In this document: positions 98-30,910 of the stretch, one piece after another | Numbering within the stretch: the first letter of the stretch is position 1 | Layout of the letters: the number at the start of each line of letters is the position of its first letter | Origin: Alphaproteobacteria bacterium | GTDB lineage: Bacteria > Pseudomonadota > Alphaproteobacteria > Bin95 | Length of the DNA: 64,000 nt | Assembly: GCA_963665325.3 (NCBI GenBank) | Contig: CAXXWS020000002.1 | Span: forward strand, 928,001-992,000 | Direction: 5' to 3' | Program-made: the position numbers and the translations under genes | Notes under the pieces: generated by a model | What the model saw: only the letters and a program-made list of their open reading frames with translations | What the model was told of the DNA's origin: nothing | Databases searched by the model: none

Positions 98-1064
98 GAC
101 ATGGATCGACATTCTCGCAGTCCTCGACGGCACGGCCCGCCTCGCCACGCCGCTCATCCTCTGCGCCATGGCGGGCCTGGTGTCCGAGCGGTCCGGTATC
201 GTGGACATCGGCCTGGAGGGCAAGCTGCTCATGGGCGCCTTCGCCGCGGCGGCGGTGGCGGCGCTGACGGGGTCTCCCTGGGCGGGGCTGGCCGCCTCGC
301 TCGCGGCTTCCGTCTCGCTGGCGCTCGTTCATGGCTTCGCCTGCATCACCCATCGCGGCGAGCAGATCGTCTCCGGGGTCGCCGTGAACATCCTCGCACT
401 CGGCATGACCGTGGTGGTGGCGAACGCGCTCTTTCGCCATGGCGGCCACACGCCTTCGCTCGGCGCGGAGGAGCGGTTTTCGGCCATCTTCCTGCCTTTG
501 TCGGAGACCCTGCGCGAGGTTCCGGTCCTCGGCCCGCTCTATGCGGAGCTGGTGTCCGGCCACAATCTGCTGGTCTATGCGGCCTTCCTCTCCGTCGCGC
601 TGGTCTGGTGGCTGGTCTGGCGCACCCGCTTCGGCCTGCGCCTGCGCGCAGCCGGCGAACTGCCCGAAGCCGTGGACAGCGCCGGCGTTTCGGTGTCGGC
701 GCTGCGCTATCGCGGCATACTGATCGCCGGCCTGCTCTGCGGCCTCGCCGGCGCTTACCTGTCGATCGCCCACGGCGCGGGCTTTGTGCGGGAGATGAGC
801 GCGGGCAAGGGCTTCCTCGCGCTGGCCGCATTGATCTTCGGGCGCTGGAGGCCGCTGCCGGTGCTCTTCGCCTGCCTGCTGTTCGGTCTGTTGGACACCG
901 TCGCGCCGAGGCTCCAGGGCATGGACCTGCCGCTGATCGGCCCCGCCCCCGTGGCGCTGGTCTCGGTGCTGCCCTACGCGATGACGGTCGTGCTGCTCGC
1001 CGGCTTCTTCGGCCGCGCCGTCCCGCCCCGCGCCCTCGGTCGCCCTTTCGTCAAGGAACACTGA
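90..1064 (+). CDS. ABC transporter permease, nucleoside/simple sugar (BPD_transp_2) family
   Basis: Motifs [39 protein letters not shown]; multiple TM segments. Confidence 0.9.
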
Positions 1065-1131
1065 CAGCGGCCGCTTCCGGGGCGCGGGCGTGGGCGCTAT
1101 GTTCGGCGCATCGGAGGAGGAGGGGCCGGAC

Positions 1132-2247
1132 ATGCCCGCCAACAAGAAGATGCTCATTCTCGCCGGCGACGGCATCGGCCCGGAGGTCGTGGGGCAGGTG
1201 CGCCGCGTGGTGGACTGGATGGACCGGCGCCGCCATGTCTCCTTCGATATCGCGGAAGGGCTGGTGGGGGGTGCTGCCATCGACGCGCACGGCCTGCCGC
1301 TCACCGACGAGACGCTCGCCGATGCCGTGGCCTCGGACGGCGTGCTGTTCGGCTCGGTCGGCGGCCCGAAATGGGAGACGCTGCCCTTCGACGTCCAGCC
1401 TGAGCGCGGCCTGCTGCGCTTGCGCAAGGAGATGGACCTGTTCGCCAATCTCCGCCCGGCCATCGTGTTCGACGCTCTGGCGGACGCCTCATCGCTCAAG
1501 CGCGAGCTCGTCTCCGGCCTTGACATCATGATCCTGCGCGAGCTGACGGGCGGCATCTATTTCGGCGAGCCGCGCGGTATCGAGGACCTGGGCGGCGGCA
1601 TAAGGCGCGGCATCAACACGCAGGTCTATACGACGCCCGAGGTCGAGCGCGTCGCCAGGGTCGGCTTCGAGCTCGCCCGCAAGCGCTCGAACCGCGTCAT
1701 GTCGGTCGAGAAGGCCAATGTCATGGAGAGCGGCGTGATGTGGCGCGAGGACGTCCAGCGCATCCATGACGACGAGTTCCCCGATGTCGAGCTCGCGCAC
1801 ATGTATGCGGACAACTGCGCCATGCAGCTCGTCCGCAATCCCAAGCAGTTCGATGTCATCGTCACCGACAATCTGTTCGGCGACCTGCTGTCGGACTGCG
1901 CGGCGATGCTGACCGGCTCGCTCGGCATGCTGCCCTCGGCCTCGCTCGGCGCGGAGGATGCCACCACGGGCCGGCGCCTCTCGCTCTATGAGCCCGTGCA
2001 TGGCAGCGCTCCCGACATCGCCGGGCAGGACCGTGCCAACCCGCTCGCCGAACTGCTCTCCTTCTCGATGATGCTGCGCTACAGTTTCGACATGGGCGAG
2101 GACGCGGACCTGGTGGACGGCGCGGTCGAGAACGTGCTTGCCGCGGGCGTGCGCACCGCCGATATCGCGGGAGAGGGCCAGCAGCCTGTCTCCTGCTCCG
2201 CCATGGGCGACGCCGTGCTCGCCGAACTGGACAGGTTGGCGGCGTGA
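1132..2247 (+). CDS. leuB: 3-isopropylmalate dehydrogenase
   Basis: [36 protein letters not shown]; ATG at 1132 after GGAGGAGG. Confidence 0.97.
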
Positions 2248-3062: not shown

Positions 3063-3791
3063 TCAGGAGCGGTTCTTGAAGCGCCAGCTCTCGTTGCCGG
3101 TCTCGATGATCTCGCAATGGTGGGTGAGACGATCGAGCAACGCCGTGGTCATCTTGGGATCGCCGAAGACGGACGGCCACTCGCCGAAGGCGAGGTTGGT
3201 GGTGATGACGATCGAGGTTCGCTCGTAGAGCCGGCTCATGAGGTGGAAGAGGAGCTGTCCGCCGGCTTGGGCGAAGGGCAGGTAGCCGAGTTCGTCGAGG
3301 ATGACGAAGTCGCGTCGGACGAGCTGGTCTGCGGTGCGGCCCTGGCGCCCGGCACGGAGTTCGGCCTCGAGGTGGTTCACCAGGTCGACGACGTTGTAGC
3401 AGCGGCCACGGGCGCCCTTGCGGATGCAGGAGCGCGCGACGGCGACGGCGAGATGGGTCTTGCCGGTGCCGGTGCCGCCGACCAGGACGATGTTGCGCTG
3501 GCCCTCGAGGAAGCCGCCGCCGGCGAGCTCCTGGATCAGGGGCTCGTTGACCGGCGAGCCGGCGAAGTCGAAGTCGGCCAGTTCCTTGGCCGTGGGCAGC
3601 TTGGCGGACGCCATCTGGTACTTGATCGAGCGTGCCCTCTTGTCGGCGATCTCGACCTGCAGCAGCGTACCGATGATCTGCTGCACCGGATGACGGCGCT
3701 TGAGCCCGTCGGCGAGGATGTCGTCATAGGCGGCTCGCATGCCTGCGAGCTTCAGCTGGGTCATCATCTCCAGCACATCATGACGCTCCAT
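3063..3791 (-). CDS. istB: IS21 helper ATPase IstB
   Basis: Walker [25 protein letters not shown]. Confidence 0.96.
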
Positions 3792-7476: not shown

Positions 7477-7536
7477 GCGGCCGACCGGGGGTTTCGGCAG
7501 CCGATTTGCAATCTGGCAAAATTTTCCTTCCAGGGG

Positions 7537-7567
7537 GCTTGACCACAAAATATCTATGGTAGAATGG
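7537..7567 (+). promoter_or_regulatory. Sigma70-like promoter of repeat module copy A
   Basis: GCTTGAC-N16-TAGAATGG with AT-rich upstream DNA; the same motif occurs at 25135-25105 on the minus strand; spacer is shorter than canonical. Confidence 0.5.
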
Positions 7568-7614
7568 ATTCGAGGGAAGAGGCATCCGCGCGGACCGCTT
7601 CCCTTCGCCCGGCC

Positions 7615-7755
7615 CGGCCGGACAGACCCCGATTCAGCAGACAGGTGAAGTGTGCCCTGCGTCCGGCTCGCGCGCGCAATCAGGCGCGCGAACCGCGCCG
7701 GCGCAAAGGCGCGCCCCCGCGCGCGCACGATACGCGCGAAAAAGGGGGGCGTCCG
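7615..7755 (+). repeat. GC-rich structured non-coding repeat, copy A (candidate ncRNA or element end)
   Basis: Aligns by eye to the reverse complement of about 24880-25040; shared core GCAATCAGGCGCGCGA.CCGCGCCG.CGC and CGCGC.CAC..TACGCGCGAAA.AGGG. Confidence 0.7.
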
Positions 7756-7915
7756 GAACAGGCAGCAGAGTGAACGAAACAAAAACTGGAGAGACCGATG
7801 AGAAGCATGATGACTCCGTGCGCCGCCGGGCTGCACGCAGCCTGTCGGCAAGCCGCCGGCAGGGAGACGGTTGCGGTTGCCCGCCGCGAGCCGCATCGTG
7901 CTGCCGGGAGGAAGC

Positions 7916-8512
7916 ATGGGGACCATGGACCCGGACCTGACCCTTATCGAGCGGGACCGTTCCTGCCTCGTGGTCATCGACGTGCAGCAGCATTTCCTCG
8001 ACAAGCTGCCGCCCGGCTGGCGCGTCCCGCTGGTAGAGCGCATCGCCTGGCTGATGCGGGCGGCGCGCGCGCTTGATATTCCGGTCGTCGCCACCGCCGA
8101 GGACATGGAGCGCCTCGGGCCGCTGGTGCCGGAGCTTGCCCGCTGCCTTCCCCCGGATGCGCCGCCGGTCTTCGACAAGACGGTCTTCGGAGCGTGGGGC
8201 CAGTCGGATATTCGCGCCGCGCTGGAGGGATCGGGGCGGGACAGCTTCGTGCTGGCCGGGTTGGAGACCGACGTATGCGTGGCCCAGTCTGCCCTCGGGC
8301 TCAGGGCGGGCGGTTGTCGGGTGGCGGTGGTGGCCGACGCCTGCGGCTCACCGCCGCCGAACCACGAATACGGGCTCCGGCGCCTGGGCAATACCGGGAT
8401 CGTGCTCACCACCGTCAAGGGCGTGTTCTACGAGTGGGCGCGGGACGTGGAGGCCGCTTCCCGGGTGCGCGCGGAACTGGGCGGCCCCGGCCCGCCGGGC
8501 GTCATCCTGTAG
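7916..8512 (+). CDS. Isochorismatase/YcaC-like cysteine hydrolase
   Basis: LVVIDVQ, DKTVF, GLETDVCVAQSAL, VVADAC; GGAGG upstream of the ATG. Confidence 0.9.
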   Translation: MGTMDPDLTLIERDRSCLVVIDVQQHFLDKLPPGWRVPLVERIAWLMRAARALDIPVVATAEDMERLGPLVPELARCLPPDAPPVFDKTVFGAWGQSDIRAALEGSGRDSFVLAGLETDVCVAQSALGLRAGGCRVAVVADACGSPPPNHEYGLRRLGNTGIVLTTVKGVFYEWARDVEAASRVRAELGGPGPPGVIL

Positions 8513-8554
8513 GCGCGTCATGCCCGGCGAACGGCGCTGCGGCGCAAGGCGCCT

Positions 8555-8581
8555 CATGACAAAACATGACATTTCATGACA
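8555..8581 (+). repeat. CATGAC array, 3 copies at 10-bp period (copy A)
   Basis: CATGACAAAA CATGACATTT CATGACA. Confidence 0.85.
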
Positions 8582-8655
8582 TCCCGGTGGAGTGGGCCCA
8601 CTCCGGCCGGGGGGGGGTAGTGGCGGTACTGCCGCACCGCCTCCGCAAATCCGGG

Positions 8656-24206: not shown

Positions 24207-24365
24207 GATGTGGATATCCCGTGTGAAGGCAGCGGCAGTATAGGCCCCTGCCGTCCCCCTGTCGGCCGCCCCTGCCTCTGCCGCATCCACCCATCCCGTC
24301 CGGGTATGCGTCCGGTATGCCTGCGGCGCCCTCCGCCGGGGCGGCGGCCGAGAGACCGGCGGAAG

Positions 24366-24402
24366 TGTCATGGACTGTCATGAAATGTCATGTTTCGTCA
24401 TG
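24366..24402 (-). repeat. CATGAC array, 4 copies at 10-bp period (copy B)
   Basis: Minus strand CATGACGAAA CATGACATTT CATGACAGTC CATGACA; first 27 nt match copy A with one mismatch. Confidence 0.85.
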
Positions 24403-24846
24403 GAGGCCCGCCGCGACGCCTTGCTTCTCCCCGCCGCCGCCGGTCTGCGCGGCCAGAGCTTTTTTCTTCCTCTTTTTCCTCTTCCTCCTGCGTTCTTTCC
24501 GGCGGTCCTGCCGTTCGGCCCATGCGTAGAACTCGGGCGTGTCCTGGCTGCCGGTCCATATCTTGCCGAGATAGTGGAACTCGTCCCCGCTGCCGTCATG
24601 GTCGTCCTCGCCGGGGTCCGGGGCCGGTTCGGGCCGGTGCCGGGCGCTCCAGTCGAGCACGGCGAGGAGCTGGCGCAGATGGGCGAGTTGGGCGCGTCCG
24701 GCGCGGTGGTGTTCGGCGCGGTCGCGGTCGTCCAGGGGCGGCGGCTCCGGGTTCATGTCTTCTGCACAGGCAGCGGCGAGGGCTTCGGCGGCAGGGGCAA
24801 AGTGCTCCTGCAGCGCCGCCGCCAGTTGGGGGCGGGGGTCGGTCAC
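24388..24846 (-). CDS. Hypothetical protein with basic C-terminal tract
   Basis: 152 aa; GAAGGAGG upstream of the GTG; helical N-terminal half, acidic linker, RRKERRRKRKKRKKK; stop codon lies inside the CATGAC array. Confidence 0.55.
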   Translation of the reverse strand: MTDPRPQLAAALQEHFAPAAEALAAACAEDMNPEPPPLDDRDRAEHHRAGRAQLAHLRQLLAVLDWSARHRPEPAPDPGEDDHDGSGDEFHYLGKIWTGSQDTPEFYAWAERQDRRKERRRKRKKRKKKALAAQTGGGGEKQGVAAGLHDET

Positions 24847-24879
24847 GGTCGTCCATGCCTCCTTCGGGGCCAGGGGCGG

Positions 24880-25040
24880 GACGGGGGGTCCCTGTTTCGC
24901 GCGTAATGTGTGCGCGGGGGGGCGGGCCTAACGCGGCGGCGCGGCTCGCGCGCCTGATTGCCCGCGCGCCCGCACGCGATGCGGCTGGCCGGGCGCGGGA
25001 CGCACCTTTCCCGTCCGCTCGCGCCGGGGGTTTGCGGCCC
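24880..25040 (-). repeat. GC-rich structured non-coding repeat, copy B
   Basis: Homologous to 7615-7755, with an extra CCGCA-TCGCG-TGCGG hairpin insert. Confidence 0.7.
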
Positions 25041-25104
25041 CCAGCCATTGCTTCCCTGCGCAGAAAAGCGGAAGGGCGGCCCCGGGAGCCGCCCTTCTCC
25101 ATGC

Positions 25105-25135
25105 CCATTCTACACCATTCTGCCCAAAGTCAAGC
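25105..25135 (-). promoter_or_regulatory. Sigma70-like promoter of repeat module copy B
   Basis: GCTTGAC-N16-TAGAATGG followed by hairpin GAAGGGCGGC-N7-GCCGCCCTTC. Confidence 0.5.
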
Positions 25136-26436
25136 AGTTTTGGGAACAAAAACCGAAAATATCCGGAACTTTCTCACAGCCCGTTGAATCGGCGGGATAA
25201 TCGGGGGCTCCTTCGATGCGCAGCCGTGCTGCTGGCCAGGATGGAGGGCTACCGGATTCACACATCCGTTTCAGGTGGCTTCGCGCTGTATGCCCTCATG
25301 CGTCACCCCGGCCACGCCTGCCACCCAATGCCTCCGGGACATGGATTCTCCTGCGAATGGCAATTTTCTTGCCCGTTTCGCGCCGCTAATGACTGGAAGG
25401 AGGCGACAGGAAAACGGGCCGCTGCTTGCGCAGGGCCCGGGATCGAAAGGGGTGGACGATGTCTGTCGGCGGCCCTGGCGGATGGTGGCTGGCGTGCTGG
25501 CTCGGCTCCCGGTGAGGTAGTCACGATGATGGATTTCGGCAGGCAGGGAAAGCGCCGCGAACGCAGGCAAGGGGGGCGGCCCCGGCGGGCCCGGGCGGCG
25601 GAATGACGACTCCGGCGCGCAATGCGGTCCCCGACCCGATCGAGGCCTGGGAAGTGCGGACGCCGGACGGAGCTTCGATCTTCGTAAGGCGCTACGGCAA
25701 CCCCGACGGCGCGGCATTGCTTGTCAACCACGGCAACGGGTTTGCAGTCGACGCCTATTACCCGTTCTGGTCCCGTCTCGCGGACCGTTTCGACATTTTC
25801 GTCCACGACCAGCGCAACCACGGCTGGAATCCGGTCAGCGACCGAATGCTGCACAACATCCCGCAATTCGCGGAAGATACCGAACGCGTCCTTCGGAGCA
25901 TCGGCCTGCGCCTGAAGAGCGCGAAGCCGATAATCGGGATATTTCACTCGGTCTCTTCGGTGGTTGCGCTGCGGCACGCGGTAAATGGCGGCGAGTATTC
26001 GGCGCTTGTCCTGTTCGACCCTCCCATTTGTTCGCCAGGGGGGCAGCCGGAGGATATCGAAAGGGGCGGAGCCCAGTTCAGCGCGGCGACGCTGAAGCGC
26101 AGGCCCAAATTCGAGTCCCCGGACGAACTTGCAGCATCCCTGTCCCGAAACCCCCTGTTCGGGCGGGTGAGCCCCGGGGTCATCGACCTGCTTGCCCGGG
26201 CCAGTGTGCGCCCCTCGGCCGACGGGGTGGGTTGCGAACTCTGCTGCCCGCGCGAATACGAAGCCCAGATCTTCGAGTTTTTCTTCCTCTGGTCGACGAC
26301 CGTCGATCTTGGGCGCATCCCCTGCCCGGTCAAAGTTGTCGGGTCGGACCCCACACTGTGGAGTGGGCCCCTGGGGCCGGACAGGCGGCTTGAAATGATT
26401 TGACCGGTGGGTCGGGCATTCGAAGGATCGACGCCC

Positions 26437-26796
26437 ATGGCCAAGCACCGAACCCACCGCACCCACGGCATCGCCTTCAAGCGCCAGGTCGTTCAGGAGT
26501 ATCTCGCCGGCGAGACGCTTCACGGCCTGGCCCGTCGGCACGAGCTCTCCCGCACCCTGATCCGGATCTGGGTGGACAAGTACGAGGCCGGCGCCTTCGA
26601 CGAGGACGCCGAGGCGGCCGACACGATCCAGGAATACGAGGCCCGGATCGCGGCCCTCGAGCGCCTGGTCGGCAAGCAGGCCCTGGAGCTCGAGTTCCTA
26701 AAGGGGGCTCAGCGGCACGGACGACGGCCGAGAAACGCGCCCATGTCCGTCATCACCGGCCCGAAGGCCTCTCCGTCGCCGAAGGATGCCGACTGA
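26437..26796 (+). CDS. IS3 transposase OrfA
   Basis: FKRQVV..YLAGETLHGLARRH HTH; coiled coil RIAALERLVGKQALELEFLK. Confidence 0.9.
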   Translation: MAKHRTHRTHGIAFKRQVVQEYLAGETLHGLARRHELSRTLIRIWVDKYEAGAFDEDAEAADTIQEYEARIAALERLVGKQALELEFLKGAQRHGRRPRNAPMSVITGPKASPSPKDAD

Positions 26797-27590
26797 TGGG
26801 GATCGCGCGCTCCACCTACTACGACAAGCCCAAGAGCTCGGCAGACGACACCGCCCTGGTCGAGGCCATGCACACGATCAAGGACGAGTTCGAGGCCTAC
26901 GGATGGCGCCGCATGCAGGCGGCGCTCAGGCATCGGGGCTGGGTGGTGAACCACAAGAAGATCAAGCGCCTGATGCGCGAGCATGCCCTGCAACCGCCGC
27001 GCCGGCGTCGTTTCGTCGCCACCACCGACAGCGATCACGACGAGCCCGTCTTCCCCGATCGCTCCAGAGACCGCGAGATCGATGGCCCGAACCAGCTCTG
27101 GGTCGCCGATCTGACCTACATCGCGATCCTCGGCGGCTTTGTCTATCTGGCGGCGATCATGGATGCGTGGTCGCGGCGCATCGTGGGTTACGCGGTCGGC
27201 CGACGGATCAATGCCCGGCTGACCGTTGCGGCGCTGGCGACGGCGATCGAGCATCGCAACCCGCTGCCCGGCTGCATCCATCACTCCGATAGAGGCTCGC
27301 AATACGCCGCCCAAGCCTACCGAGCTCTGCTCGACGAACACGGCCTGGTCGGCTCGATGGGCCGGCGTGGCAACCCCTACGACAACGCGATGATGGAAAG
27401 CTTCATGAAGACGCTGAAGGTCGAGGGCGTCTATCCCATGGCCTTCGAGAGTGCGGAAGACGACGCTGAACACCTGCCGCGCTTCATCGACAGCTATAAC
27501 GAGAGACGCCTACACTCCGCCCTCGGATATCTCAGCCCCAACCGTTTCGAAAAGGAACAACCCCGCACCCCGGTCAAATCCGCCGCATGA
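26796..27590 (+). CDS. IS3 transposase OrfB (rve integrase, DDE)
   Basis: YGWRRM, WVADLTY, HHSDRGSQY, DNAMMESF, HSALGYLSP. Confidence 0.93.
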   Translation: MGIARSTYYDKPKSSADDTALVEAMHTIKDEFEAYGWRRMQAALRHRGWVVNHKKIKRLMREHALQPPRRRRFVATTDSDHDEPVFPDRSRDREIDGPNQLWVADLTYIAILGGFVYLAAIMDAWSRRIVGYAVGRRINARLTVAALATAIEHRNPLPGCIHHSDRGSQYAAQAYRALLDEHGLVGSMGRRGNPYDNAMMESFMKTLKVEGVYPMAFESAEDDAEHLPRFIDSYNERRLHSALGYLSPNRFEKEQPRTPVKSAA

Positions 27591-27872
27591 AACTGTCCGG
27601 CCCCAAGGGCCCACTCCACTGCCCTACTCATTCATGCCGAGCATGGACATGGGAGAACTTGTACTTGTCGATTACGATTTCCTGCCTGAGGCCTCCCACC
27701 TGCTCCAACTCGAACAACCGGAGGAATGCGCCGCCCTGACGCTGAAATTCCTCGCGCAGCATGGATTCGGCTGACGGCGGGGCGAACCGGTGGCGCGGCC
27801 AGAGTCCAGGGGCGGCGGCGGTGAGGCAGAGCCGGTGCACTCGCTGTTGCCCGGACGGAGCAACATCCACTT

Positions 27873-27973
27873 GTCACCCCGGACGGTGCGGAGCGCCGGT
27901 CCGGGGTCCAGCCTGTCGAGGCCCCTGCGGGCTGCGCGGGCAGTGCTGGGTCCCGGATCAAGTCCGGGCCGAC
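27873..27973. repeat. Alphaproteobacterial REP-like palindromic element
   Basis: GTCACCCCGGAC..GTCCGGGGTCCAG..CTGGGTCCCGGATCAAGTCCGGGCCGAC nested palindromes. Confidence 0.7.
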
Positions 27974-28814
27974 AATTGGAGGGCCGGTGCGACAATGTGG
28001 ACCCGTGGTCGCGGTTATGAGTCTCAACTCAAAACCGCTGGTATCACTCCTCCTGGGAAGGTCCGACCTATTTTGTGGTAGCCTTGGTTGCTGCAAAAGA
28101 AGCAAGCATCATGTTCCATATTTTTTCTGTTTTTTTGATTCTTTCTCTAAACAAAGGGGCCATTCGATCATGCACCACTTCCCGATATCGAGAACAGACT
28201 TCGACATCCCTTGCGCAAGATTCATCTTCCAGAAAAGCCTGTCTTTCTTTTTCTAACGGAAGGAATTTCTGGGCATAATCTCTCATTGTATTACAGTAAC
28301 GCAGAGTTTGTAGATATAACAATTTTTCAAAATGGTCTTTCATCGGGAGTTTGGCACAAGTCTCTGCATTCTGAATAGTTAACTGCAAATTATGCAGAAT
28401 GCAAGGTCTATATTGAGGGTAAAGCTTTAGCTTTAACTCCTTTTTGTTTCCTGTGTAGCTTGGAGATCTTATCAGATGGGATTTATGACTGGTATTTAAT
28501 CCATTTGAAGCTTGGCGATAAGCAAACAAAACCAAGTAATAATATGCATGCAATTCATACTGATCTGAATATTCCGGGTGAGCCATACCTTTAGGGTAAC
28601 TGTCTTGTTGTAGGTTGATCAGGTGTATCACCCGACCGAAAGCATGAAAAGCCTCTTTGTAACTGTGTCTGTCCCATTCTTTGCCATGCTTTGCTCCGTT
28701 CGTGGCAATATATAGAGCCAGCAATTAAGCCGCCGGTACATGGCCATTCTTAGCTGCCACCTCCAACATATTTAAAGCGCGGACATCATGACCTGAGCCC
28801 GTTGGGTCCCTCGT

Positions 28815-29666
28815 TCATAAGGAAAGTCCTGGTTCTGCATAGCGCATCGTAAATGGGTTGGCACGCGCGCCGGGCGCGGAGCCCTCAGCCAGCTCAAGCG
28901 CGCGGCGCGCATCTGCGGGCGTGTTTCCGTTCAGCGCCGAGTGTGGCCTGACGGTGTTGTAGTCGTGGCGCCAGATGGCGAGCTTGCGCCTTGCGTCGGC
29001 GAGGCTCGCGAAGACCTCCTCGTTCAGCAGCTCATCGCGCAGCCGACCGATGAAGCTCTCGATGTAGGCATTCTGGGTCGGCTTACCCGGCGCGATGTAG
29101 TGCCAGCTCACTCCTGTGCTGTTCTGCCATTCCAGGATTGCACGGCTGGTCAGCTCCGTGCCGTTGTCGCTGACGATGACCGCAGGCTCGCCGTACAGCC
29201 GGATCAGCTTGTCGAGTTCGCGGGCGACGCGCTGGCCCGAGAGCGAGGTGTCGGCGACCAGCGCCAGGCACTCGCGCGTGCAGTCGTCGATCACCGCCAG
29301 GGCGCGGAACCGGCGACCGGGCTCGAACACGTCCGACACGAAGTCGAGCGACCAGCGTTCGCCCGCGCAAAGCGGCGCGTCTTGCGGCGCCCTCGTCCCG
29401 GTTGCCCGCTTGCGGCCGCGGCGGCGCTTCACCGCAAGCCCCTCCTCCTGGTAAAGCCGGCGGAGCTTCTTGTGGTTCATTCTCATCCCCTCGCGCTCGA
29501 GCATGAGCCCGATGCGGCGATAACCGAAGCGCCGGCGTTCGCCCGCGATCTCACGCATGCGAGCCCGGATCTCCGGATTGTCGGGGTCCGGCTCGCGCCG
29601 TACCGTCTTGGGATCGACGCCAACCAGCCGGCAGGCGCGGCGTTGCGACAGCCCATGCCTGGACAT
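28815..29666 (-). CDS. IS407-group transposase OrfB (probably expressed by -1 frameshift)
   Basis: [33 protein letters not shown]. Confidence 0.92.
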
Positions 29667-29704
29667 CGCCACGAGAGCCGCCTCCCGCCTGCGCCGGGGC
29701 GTCC

Positions 29705-29968
29705 TCAGCCCTTTCCCAGGAGATCCTTCAGCGCAGCGTTGTCCAGCATCGCATCGGCCAGGAGCCTCTTCAGCCGCGCGTTCTCCGTCTCCAGGCTCTT
29801 CAGCTTGCGCGCGTCCGACACGTCCAAGCCGCCGAGCTTCGCCTTCCACTTGTAGAACGTGTTCTGGCTGATCCCGTGCTTCCGGCAGACCTCTGCCGTC
29901 TTCATGCCGCGTTCCTGATCGGCCAGGATCGCGATGATCTGCTCTTCCGTGAACCTCGATCGTCTCAT
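29705..29968 (-). CDS. IS407-group transposase OrfA
   Basis: [28 protein letters not shown]. Confidence 0.93.
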
Positions 29969-30311
29969 GTCCGTCTCCTCGGTGACGGACCCTCCTATCA
30001 GACGAGGGACATTTCGGGGCGCAGGTCAATCATCCCCATCACCGCGCGCTAGCAAACATCTGGCATAACCCATCGCATAGCCACTTGCTGTAGGTGTGTT
30101 TTTGTAAAGACCGGCTGTATCTTCAAAATCACCACAACGAAAAAACCCTCTTTCGTAGTAAGTGGCAACTGCGGCGGGCAGAATGCCGGCCCGTCGCCAG
30201 CGCCGCCGCGGCAAGGCCGGTGAGTGCGGTGCGGATGAGCATGTAATGCCGGCGGCGGTTGGTCGGCCCCGATAGTGAGGGCGCCTATGCCGTCGGCCCG
30301 GTCCTCTACCC

Positions 30312-30417
30312 CCTTATCCCGAGTAGTGGCGCCAGCCGCGTATCGAGGGAGGCGTTTCCGCCGGCGTGCCAGTCCTTCGATACGCCCCCGCTGGCGCGGG
30401 CGCTACTCAGGATGAGG
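30312..30417. repeat. Alphaproteobacterial REP/RIME-like palindromic element
   Basis: CCTTATCCCGAGTAG..GCGTATCGAGGGA / TCCTTCGATACGC..CTACTCAGGATGAGG. Confidence 0.75.
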
Positions 30418-30499
30418 AGAGAGCCGGCCGCGCCGAAAGCCGGGCAAGTCGAATTGCGGCTCCGCCAGCCTCGTTCATTCCGTTGCAGGCCGCTTCATC

Positions 30500-30910
30500 C
30501 TATTCCCAGCCGGGCTGGTGTATCTCGATGATCGTGCCCTCGGGGTCCTGGAAGAAGATCTGGTACCAGCCGCCCATGGCCCAGGCGCCATAGTCCGAGA
30601 AGGGGATGCCGAGGTCGGTCAGGCGCTGCTTGACCGCCTCGATGTCGTCGGTGCGAAAAGCGATATGGCCGCGCTCCAGCGGGTTGACGGCATGGCCCAT
30701 GCGGTGCCCGATGCCGAGGTCCTGCGTGGCGAGGTGGAATTCGGTGCGCCCGTCGGTCAGGAACGACACGCCGCCCGAATAGCCCCCGCTCAGGTCCCGG
30801 TTGCCTTCGCGGCCCTCCATGGACTCCATGCCGAAGACCGAGCGGTAGAACTCGTCCAGCCCGGGCACGTTCTTCGTGCAGACATTGATGTGGTGGAGTT
30901 CGATTTTCAT
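30500..30910 (-). CDS. VOC/glyoxalase family protein
   Basis: LHHIN, FYRSVFG, GHIAFRTDD, FFQDPEG.IIE. Confidence 0.9.
   Translation of the reverse strand: MKIELHHINVCTKNVPGLDEFYRSVFGMESMEGREGNRDLSGGYSGGVSFLTDGRTEFHLATQDLGIGHRMGHAVNPLERGHIAFRTDDIEAVKQRLTDLGIPFSDYGAWAMGGWYQIFFQDPEGTIIEIHQPGWE

Follow-up and report, generated by a model that had tools for sequence, protein, structure and literature searches.

Dispersed promoter-fronted cassettes with a small-terminase-type protein and a phased CATGAC array in an alphaproteobacterial genus

The 64,000-nucleotide stretch of DNA from a sponge-associated Alphaproteobacteria bacterium analysed here (assembly GCA_963665325.3, contig CAXXWS020000002.1, positions 928,001 to 992,000; hereafter the window) holds two copies, A on the forward and B on the reverse strand, of a cassette composed of a promoter, a GC-rich leader tract, one open reading frame (ORF) and an array of CATGAC hexamers repeated every 10 bp. 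The cassettes form a genus-restricted, high-copy and self-promoted family. There is solid support for a dispersed, promoter-fronted family in which full-length members encode a DNA-binding protein of the small-terminase type beside the phased array and which can carry other genes. The explanation we favour, with moderate confidence, is that these self-promoted cassettes, with their terminase-type protein and docking array, originated in phage packaging. We found no published description of dispersed terminase-type cassettes in the literature. New here are the isochorismatase cargo at two loci, a second protein family, and the per-genome counts of the core motif, the terminase-like gene and the second family, together with the change of the hexamer as the protein diverges, four phage contigs with an array ahead of a terminase gene, and flanking duplications of variable length.

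An earlier note, made from the sequence of the window, had described a cassette present in two copies. Its four parts are present in the order and orientation it gave at both loci, and the two ORFs are unrelated, as it held, one belonging to the isochorismatase family and the other to an unannotated cassette family; the number of copies, however, was far too low. BLASTN searches of the whole 5.58-Mb genome (G000) with both cassette ends returned 73 tract loci and 70 array loci. A same-strand array lies downstream within 3 kb of 62 of the 73 tracts, 51 of these within 600 bp by hand count, where our arithmetic gives a chance expectation of about 1.4 pairs. Independent distribution of the two motifs, which the earlier note had named as the outcome that would undo its reading, is thus not what the genome shows, and the pairing is real. 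A 24-nt core motif of the leader, searched with up to two mismatches, occurs 65 times (33 forward, 32 reverse) and not once in the reversed control. Cassette density amounts to one per ~85 kb. Pairs of CATGAC at exactly 10 bp number 157, against at most 18 at any other spacing up to 40 bp, and three control hexamers have no peak at 10 bp. The two-hexamer pattern with at most one mismatch gave 214 matches in 119 clusters, compared with 2 in the reversed sequence; about a dozen of these clusters represent another, unrelated repeat whose flanks are the same at each site, and some are solitary matches within genes that have one mismatch. This unrelated multi-copy element, in which identical flanks enclose CATGACGCTCCATGAC, lies at about window position 3779 (G000:C3:931779) and in about 11 other places.

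The family is bounded by the genus. The core motif is found 3-116 times in 13 of 16 congeners, with 45-116 copies in most of them, and is absent from G001, G003 and G014, whose genomes measure 3.4-3.8 Mb, as well as from 20 genomes of two sister genera. G012 retains three cores and a diverged leader. Related contigs come from uncultured Alphaproteobacteria, several of them sponge-derived.

Complete copies of the cassette carry one of two genes. The first is represented by five loci with a 326-aa ORF, in which the units are 85-93% identical over 1313-1387 nt and homology stops at the cassette ends described below. This ORF matches the Pfam family Terminase_2 (PF03592) with 47.2 bits (cut-off 26.1) over residues 11-80, and also phrog_51, annotated as terminase small subunit. 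All five Terminase_2 matches of the genome are cassette genes. A profile built from 12 homologues retrieved the DNA-binding domain of SF6 G1P from the PDB at an E value of 1.1e-8. The AlphaFold model of the protein has a confidence score (pLDDT) of about 90 over residues 11-60, and Foldseek matches it best to 4zc3 and 2cmp, at a target-normalised TM score of 0.82, a root-mean-square deviation (rmsd) of 0.9-2.1 Å and 41-42% identity over 50 residues. The model continues in long helices (52-106), and its alignment to full-length 3zqq has an rmsd of 9.2 Å. By profile and predicted fold, the N-terminus of the 326-aa protein is established as a small-terminase DNA-binding domain of the SF6/SPP1 G1P type, an assignment that concerns the 326-aa ORF of complete cassettes and not the ORFs of copies A and B. 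The terminase-like N-terminus is present in 12 of the 16 congeners, in G010 and G015 as fragments only.

The array accompanies this protein well beyond the genome in which it was noticed. Among ten homologous loci with protein identities of 33-79%, eight have a 10-bp-phased array at or just past the stop codon; of the other two, one has a disrupted gene and one ends too early. The hexamer is CATGAC in L015, L016, L019, L027 and L028 (44-79% identity), C(A/C/G)TGAC in L030 and L031 (56-57%) and GTT(T/G)AC, in four copies, in L036 (33%). This shift of the hexamer with protein divergence is the pattern expected of a cognate protein-DNA pair. Phage genomes offer a further parallel. An exact triple array was found in 27 viral contigs, of which 24 were annotated and the other three looked like duplicates of these. 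In four of the 24 (L114, L116, L118 and L122) three or more phased hexamers precede a same-strand large-terminase gene by 150-1300 bp and small ORFs occupy the interval, where we estimate about 0.4 such cases by chance. The arrangement in L122 (2197-3026, minus strand) runs from the array through a promoter-like stretch and a 72-aa ORF to a phrog_51 small terminase and the large terminase. From these sequence comparisons, the CATGAC array is most likely the binding (pac-like) site of the terminase-like protein. Reading the array or the 5' region as a Pho box or LexA box, judged by consensus only, was dropped, the spacing being 10 rather than 11 bp and a second GTTC at N7 being absent.

The anatomy of the family is uniform. 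The 5' boundary of a cassette lies close to a TTGTTC motif within AT-rich sequence. TTGAC, 15 nt ending in TGn, and TAnnAT follow, an arrangement conserved in an alignment of 58 leader sequences and in the family consensus. We read TTGAC-N15-TAnnAT as a putative housekeeping-type promoter of the extended -10 kind; a simple sigma-70 scan did not call it in copy A or the family because the hexamer spacer is 15 nt. Hairpin 1 comes next, with at least two Watson-Crick pair types at three of its four scored stem pairs (for example AU 29, GC 14, GU 5 in the family alignment), and is followed in most copies by a second small hairpin. The GC-rich leader core of ~110 nt, whose centre GCAATCAGGCGCGCGAACCGCGCCGGCGC is nearly invariant, leads to a further hairpin, a GGAGG-like motif and the ORF start. 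At the far end, three or four CATGAC(A) hexamers with A/T-rich spacers, set exactly 10 bp or one helical turn apart, overlap the stop codon or lie shortly past it, and a G-rich tail of ~10-20 nt, CCGGTGGAGTGGGCCC in one subfamily, completes the unit. Cassettes measure 0.35-1.4 kb and hold one ORF or none. When aligned, the 5' and 3' ends do not resemble one another.

Of all parts of the cassette the leader is the best conserved, and no model considered explains it. The earlier note had offered a non-coding RNA with a binding site as one of its two readings; the covariation of hairpin 1 agrees with the RNA part, while the GC-rich core has no assignable structure. Consensus folding of the 58 leaders and a scan for paired columns gave covariation in hairpin 1 only, and a fold for the core cannot be claimed because each GCGC run pairs with several others. 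A local hairpin around GCAATCAG was likewise rejected on inspection of the alignment, its left arm being broken (CAGGCG) in about half of the copies without compensation. Rfam 15 has no match in the 64-kb window at the gathering threshold, in keeping with the note's failure to recognise a named family.

In copy A (plus strand), the AT-rich upstream stretch and promoter occupy 7505-7565, with GCTTGAC starting at 7537, TTGACC at 7539-7544 and TGG-TAGAAT at 7557-7565, of which TAGAAT takes up 7560-7565. Hairpin 1 (7574-7603), read like the promoter directly from the sequence, begins a few nucleotides past the inferred transcription start. BLASTN matches to the family place the GC-rich leader core at 7636-7760, with the near-invariant centre at 7676-7704. 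A Shine-Dalgarno-like GGAGAG, an ATG at 7798, a short ORF remnant and the junction with the cargo follow at 7789-7915, as read directly; the junction sequence (GGTTGCGGTTGCC...) recurs in G005, G007 and G016. The cargo itself, at 7916-8512, is an isochorismatase-family hydrolase gene (PF00857, 99.3 bits against a cut-off of 27, E 3.5e-28, residues 16-166). The 3' module, again read directly, spans 8555-8605, with CATGAC at 8555, 8565 and 8575 and then the tail ATCCCGGTGGAGTGGGCCC. One RNA run yielded a single 179-nt contig within the isochorismatase ORF and left the leader uncovered; such runs are stored as contigs, from which transcript starts and ends are not readable. In three sponge-associated metagenome runs, the depth over window 7664-7707 (leader core) and 8544-8587 (array) exceeds the flanking depth by a factor of tens to hundreds. 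These figures are summed contig depths and not copy numbers, and the excess fits a high copy number in the community.

Copy B (minus strand) aligns with copy A along the tract, the best block reaching 83% identity over 89 nt. Its AT-rich upstream stretch and promoter lie at 25107-25160, where TTGACT (25133-25128) and TAGAAT (25112-25107) are read directly and align with copy A, and GCTTGAC is read from 25135. Hairpin 1 and a T-rich tail (25061-25097) were found by a terminator scan to resemble an intrinsic terminator, with GC pairs making up 9 of the 12 in the stem and CGCTTTTCTG behind it. The leader core covers 24870-25000, with the core motif running from 24961 downward (G000:C3:952938-952961, one mismatch). 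The ORF of 152 aa (24388-24846) stops at the TGA of the second CATGAC, and the 3' module (24350-24402) consists of four CATGAC in 10-bp phase (24402-24367) and the tail ACTTCCGCC. The array is flanked by inverted arms (window 24340-24446) of 16 nt with 88% complementarity, which include the exact 10-nt pair AGACCGGCGG / CCGCCGGTCT; in this one copy looked at, the array could sit in the loop of a stem formed by the arms, judging by their complementarity.

The protein of copy B is a short member of the unannotated cassette family, whose gene is the second of the two seen in complete copies. It shares 56% identity with the 187-aa ORF of another cassette in the genome and has 88 homologous clusters in a large protein collection, typically of 190-230 aa. 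No Pfam domain was found in these clusters apart from spurious lysine-rich matches, their sole name is 'hypothetical protein', and a PDB fold search with the family model gave no match at E below 1. The model predicts a helical hairpin, a beta-hairpin and a long helix, with a disordered tail rich in lysine. MTATDPRP is the starting motif in about 10 of the 62 paired cassettes, copy B among them, and the family N-terminus is present in 12 of the 16 congeners, including G009, G010 and G015, and absent from G012. Cassettes of this second type have the same leader and array as those of the terminase type. Most of the remaining cassettes encode 15-60 aa, either internal-deletion remnants of one of the two types or small basic peptides, and one ORF of 65 aa fuses the terminase-like protein's first five residues to its middle part; a few cassettes hold foreign genes, as copy A does. 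The short copies are deletion derivatives of long ones. Their ORFs stop within the array in differing frames (MTKHDIS, HDET or WET before the stop), so that the array is a feature of DNA or RNA and not a conserved peptide.

Copy B also marks a boundary in gene content. A glyoxalase/VOC-type gene abuts an aldo-keto reductase gene in 9 of 11 congener loci inspected, and the two are 6,246 bp apart in G000 (window 24256-30501). This 6.2-kb G000-specific insertion has copy B at its edge and contains an alpha/beta hydrolase gene (25603-26403, plus strand) and two IS3-family (rve) transposase ORFs (26400-27590, plus; 28815-30029, minus). Copy B thus sits at the junction of strain-specific and shared DNA.

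Comparison of the congeners bears out the gene capture that had been proposed in the earlier note, at least for copy A. Orthologues of its isochorismatase gene, with 77-87% DNA identity, lie within the same cassette in congeners. In G000 and G016 the leader, ORF remnant, isochorismatase gene and array are colinear between a major facilitator superfamily (MFS) gene and a pdxY-like gene; the unit of G016 additionally contains a ~290-bp insert and has two arrays, with ~11 kb between array and pdxY-like gene. At the MFS locus of G011, the promoter is kept and the leader is deleted past the first half of hairpin 1, which places the promoter directly ahead of the ribosome-binding site of the cargo, and the array is present. 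In G006 the MFS gene adjoins the isochorismatase gene, and promoter, leader and array are gone; the decayed cassette tail that remains marks this as a decayed form and not an empty site. G005 and G007 contain a colinear unit that is 77-78% identical to window 7572-8589/8604 and shares its internal junction, placed here between a pyrF-like gene and cysS, and their MFS orthologues lie elsewhere. G000 has a degenerate array remnant at the same cysS junction. With the isochorismatase cassette at two unrelated loci in congeners, cargo capture is real. The cargo could have relocated by transposition or, equally, by a double crossover between resident cassettes with leader and array as homology arms. 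A staphylococcal-nuclease homologue (PF00565), on the opposite strand in the ~1 kb between leader and array of locus L010 (G000:C3:64900-67000; 810-1352, minus strand), may be a second case of foreign cargo.

The same note's picture of an element that is non-autonomous, with asymmetric ends and a middle that varies, also held up. Neither window copy has a transposase, and the two ends of the three cassettes tested do not form an inverted repeat. The dispersed copies appear to have no recombinase of their own: a recombinase-bearing copy, which the note proposed to look for, was sought by annotating the four longest-spaced pairs and one 1-kb pair, and no family-specific recombinase was found among these five. 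Two of them hold IS110 and IS1595 insertions, and the others contain host-type genes or the nuclease homologue. The interrupted cassettes are L135 (G000:C1:1918700-1921400; 539-1963, minus) and L136 (G000:C4:316900-319900; 185-1243, plus); in one an IS110-family transposase gene lies between leader and array, and in the other an IS1595-family element lies inside the array. IS110-type elements are sequence-targeted, and the cassette could be a preferred target of such an element.

How the cassettes spread can be approached from their flanks. The attempt to draw boundaries from empty orthologous loci, suggested in the note, failed for the window copies: the congeners offered no unambiguous empty site for either one, and because G006 is decayed and copy B sits at the edge of a composite 6.2-kb insertion, the exact ends and target duplications of these two copies are undefinable. 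We also mapped the flanks of 26 loci from relatives (L011-L036) onto G000. In four (L011, L012, L015 and L022) both flanks are adjacent in G000, so the terminase-type cassette is absent there. Three of the four insertions are flanked by direct duplications of host DNA: ~22 bp in L022 (copies at about 2030-2052 and 3736-3758), ~105-145 bp in L012 (about 2060-2175 and 3640-3760) and ~470 bp in L015 (1563-2032 and 3613-4082), the promoter-side copy being partial and diverged. No duplication is evident around the L011 insertion. Such variable lengths do not fit a classical transposase. As a speculation, duplications of this kind might arise if a circular or linear fragment were integrated through two events, one of them homologous and the other illegitimate. 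RNA-mediated, retroposon-like spread, which variable duplications also suggest, was rejected because each copy includes the -35 and -10 elements together with ~50 nt of preceding sequence, and a transcript from the cassette's own promoter could not carry these.

We propose that the cassettes probably descend from a phage packaging module. The terminase-like protein would bind the phased hexamers as a small terminase binds its pac site, leaving a nucleoprotein mark at each of the ~65 cassettes, with gene-less copies served in trans. These marks may recruit a phage large terminase and so initiate headful packaging of adjacent chromosomal DNA, in which case the cassettes would act as minimal satellite-like elements or transduction beacons. 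The note's account of a non-autonomous element was incomplete: it had missed the small-terminase-type protein, which makes the array a probable protein-binding site and not a transposon end.

Several observations weigh against this proposal. The PF03592 match spans only positions 2-71 of the 141 in the profile, so that an oligomerisation core is at most putative. No large terminase lies beside any cassette, the five terminase-like genes standing alone. G009, a complete genome, has 45 cores and no terminase-like match, and G010 (114 cores) and G015 (62 cores) have fragments of the gene only; gene-less copies thus persist without the resident protein, which weakens strict dependence in trans. 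Identity among the five terminase-type cassettes is no higher than 85-93%, so the expansion is not recent in this genome. The second protein family has the same array at its cassettes without a recognisable DNA-binding fold. Other viral 10-bp-phased CATGAC arrays adjoin integrase, replication-initiator, primase or ParB-like genes, which points to decamer arrays as general protein-docking devices that are not specific to packaging. The leader core was not found in viral contigs, nor was a close viral homologue of the 326-aa protein (the best has 32% identity over 77 residues), and the strongly conserved leader plays no role in a terminase and pac model.

A search of the genome for large terminases (PF03354, PF03237, PF04466) gave one only, in a Mu-like prophage on contig C1. 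The head and packaging region of this prophage, L105 (G000:C1:468000-487999), encodes Mu gpT, Mu I, Mu F, a Mu portal, the large terminase (Terminase_6N/6C), a lysozyme and a D12 adenine methyltransferase; the Mu F-like protein, 717 aa long, carries an ADP-ribosyltransferase domain (PF01129, PF03496) at its C-terminus. No CATGAC array in the genome list lies near the prophage. No helper phage came to light: no viral contig has the leader core, no viral homologue is close, and the Mu-like prophage has no array nearby.

The main rival to the terminase and pac explanation is a selfish element resembling miniature inverted-repeat transposable elements (MITEs), moved in trans by a transposase or recombinase, with the hexamers as sub-terminal binding sites for that enzyme or an accessory protein, the terminase-like helix-turn-helix protein as the element's DNA-recognition accessory in place of a packaging factor, and the promoter riding along as a 'mobile promoter'. 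We regard this as possible though doubtful. It would account for the 45-116 copies in most congeners and their absence from the three small-genome congeners and the two sister genera, for presence and absence at orthologous sites, for the direct host duplications at three of four mapped insertions, for cargo at a second locus, and for the persistence of cassettes where an intact terminase-like gene is missing from the genome; sets of reused promoters in front of unrelated genes are also on record (PMC3575422). However, terminal inverted repeats were not found in three cassettes, the duplication lengths vary as they would not after the staggered cut of a transposase, and the annotated cassettes have no dedicated recombinase, their two transposases being secondary IS110 and IS1595 insertions. 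Cargo could shift without any transposition if resident cassettes recombined by double crossover at their conserved ends, and the recurrence of a terminase-type gene with a phased array, in distant lineages and with a different hexamer, would be left unexplained.

The conservation of promoter and leader, the best preserved parts, raises instead the idea of a dispersed regulatory unit: a gated promoter, hairpin 1 as an early terminator or stabiliser, the leader as a cis-regulatory RNA or antitermination target, and the array as an operator or roadblock that keeps transcription within the cassette, so that any gene inside would be expressed under control. The covariation of hairpin 1 and the terminator-like, T-rich tail of its copy B version fit this idea, as does the placement of each ORF type, which starts behind a Shine-Dalgarno-like motif past the leader and terminates within the array or shortly ahead of it, and G011 keeps the promoter, with the leader deleted, directly before the isochorismatase gene. 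We nevertheless judge it improbable. The (GC)n-rich core has no fold backed by covariation and the leader no Rfam match, the single RNA run gave its 179-nt contig inside the cargo gene only, most copies encode merely a 15-60 aa peptide of non-conserved sequence, and a regulon fails to explain 65 copies with insertion differences among congeners. Very improbable, in our view, is a translational role for the array, in which three hexamers at 10-nt spacing (1 modulo 3) put TGA and ATG in all frames and thereby terminate any inserted ORF, or re-start translation, where the cassette ends. Short ORFs do stop in the array in differing frames, and copy B stops at the second hexamer; yet the isochorismatase ORF and the L030 and L031 genes stop ahead of the array, the GTT(T/G)AC array of L036 has no stop in all frames, strict 10-bp phase with AT-rich spacers is typical of protein binding to one face of the helix, and similar arrays lie in non-coding phage DNA. 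That two independent repeats are paired by chance has next to no likelihood: both are abundant, but the excess of same-strand pairs over the ~1.4 expected refutes it, order and orientation are constant, and the pairing is kept across 13 congeners and more distant relatives.

A bolder form of the packaging explanation, which we put forward tentatively and think rather unlikely, would make the cassettes ultra-minimal phage satellites or 'pac beacons', reduced to a promoter, a recognition protein acting in cis or trans and a docking array. If so, the motor of a helper phage would start headful packaging at dozens of sites and the whole genome of a sponge symbiont would be transducible, with genes caught between cassette ends carried and exchanged. 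Should the arrays work as pac-like sites, they would be the smallest known route by which chromosomal DNA hijacks phage packaging, and would amount to built-in gene exchange in uncultured sponge symbionts, whose transfer mechanisms are largely guessed. Even without a packaging role, the family clearly exemplifies promoter-bearing cassettes that take up host genes and redistribute them, here isochorismatase. Its cassettes mark junctions of gene content between congeners, as at the 6.2-kb insertion of copy B and the ~11 kb of G016, and a second, unannotated protein family is now defined and tied to the same ends.

The cassettes can be compared with several known systems. In the three cassettes and four insertions tested, they lack the terminal inverted repeats and the fixed-length target-site duplication of MITEs and other elements derived from insertion sequences. 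A survey of promoter reuse (PMC3575422) describes groups of promoters that recur ahead of unrelated genes. Among promoter-bearing intergenic repeats are also the Correia elements of Neisseria. The cassettes resemble these 'mobile promoters' as dispersed short repeats that bring a promoter before unrelated genes (in copy A, the isochorismatase-family gene), but they have no inverted ends, are asymmetric, contain an internal reading frame and, in the full form, encode a DNA-binding protein.

Phage-inducible chromosomal islands (PICIs) are ~10-15 kb long, carry integrase, repressor and replication genes, and occur in one or few copies. With these islands, and with Staphylococcus aureus pathogenicity islands (SaPIs), the cassettes share being non-phage chromosomal elements with a small-terminase-type protein of their own and a cognate site, here putative; they differ in their size of 0.35-1.4 kb, their dozens of copies and the absence of integrase, regulatory and replication genes, and we know of no helper phage for them. 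In the islands, the element-encoded small terminase (TerS) drives preferential packaging of the element's own DNA, as stated in PMC8494744.

Short phased protein-binding repeats at or inside a small-terminase gene are found in the pac site of phage P1, with phased hexamers inside pacA, and in the R sites of lambda cosB. The cassettes differ from both in motif, protein family and their chromosomal multi-copy setting, and no cleavage site was identified in them. Relative to the SPP1 and SF6 G1P small terminases and their pac sites (PF03592; PDB 2cmp, 4zc3, 3zqq), the cassettes have no adjacent large terminase or head genes, occupy ~65 dispersed sites per genome, most of them without the gene, and carry at each site their own constitutive-looking promoter and a long conserved leader. 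The C-terminal two thirds of the cassette protein are unrelated to G1P, being acidic and then lysine-rich, and a ring-forming core is at most putative in the cassette protein. What the two systems have in common is that N-terminal helix-turn-helix domain, together with repeated short sites at the protein's own gene.

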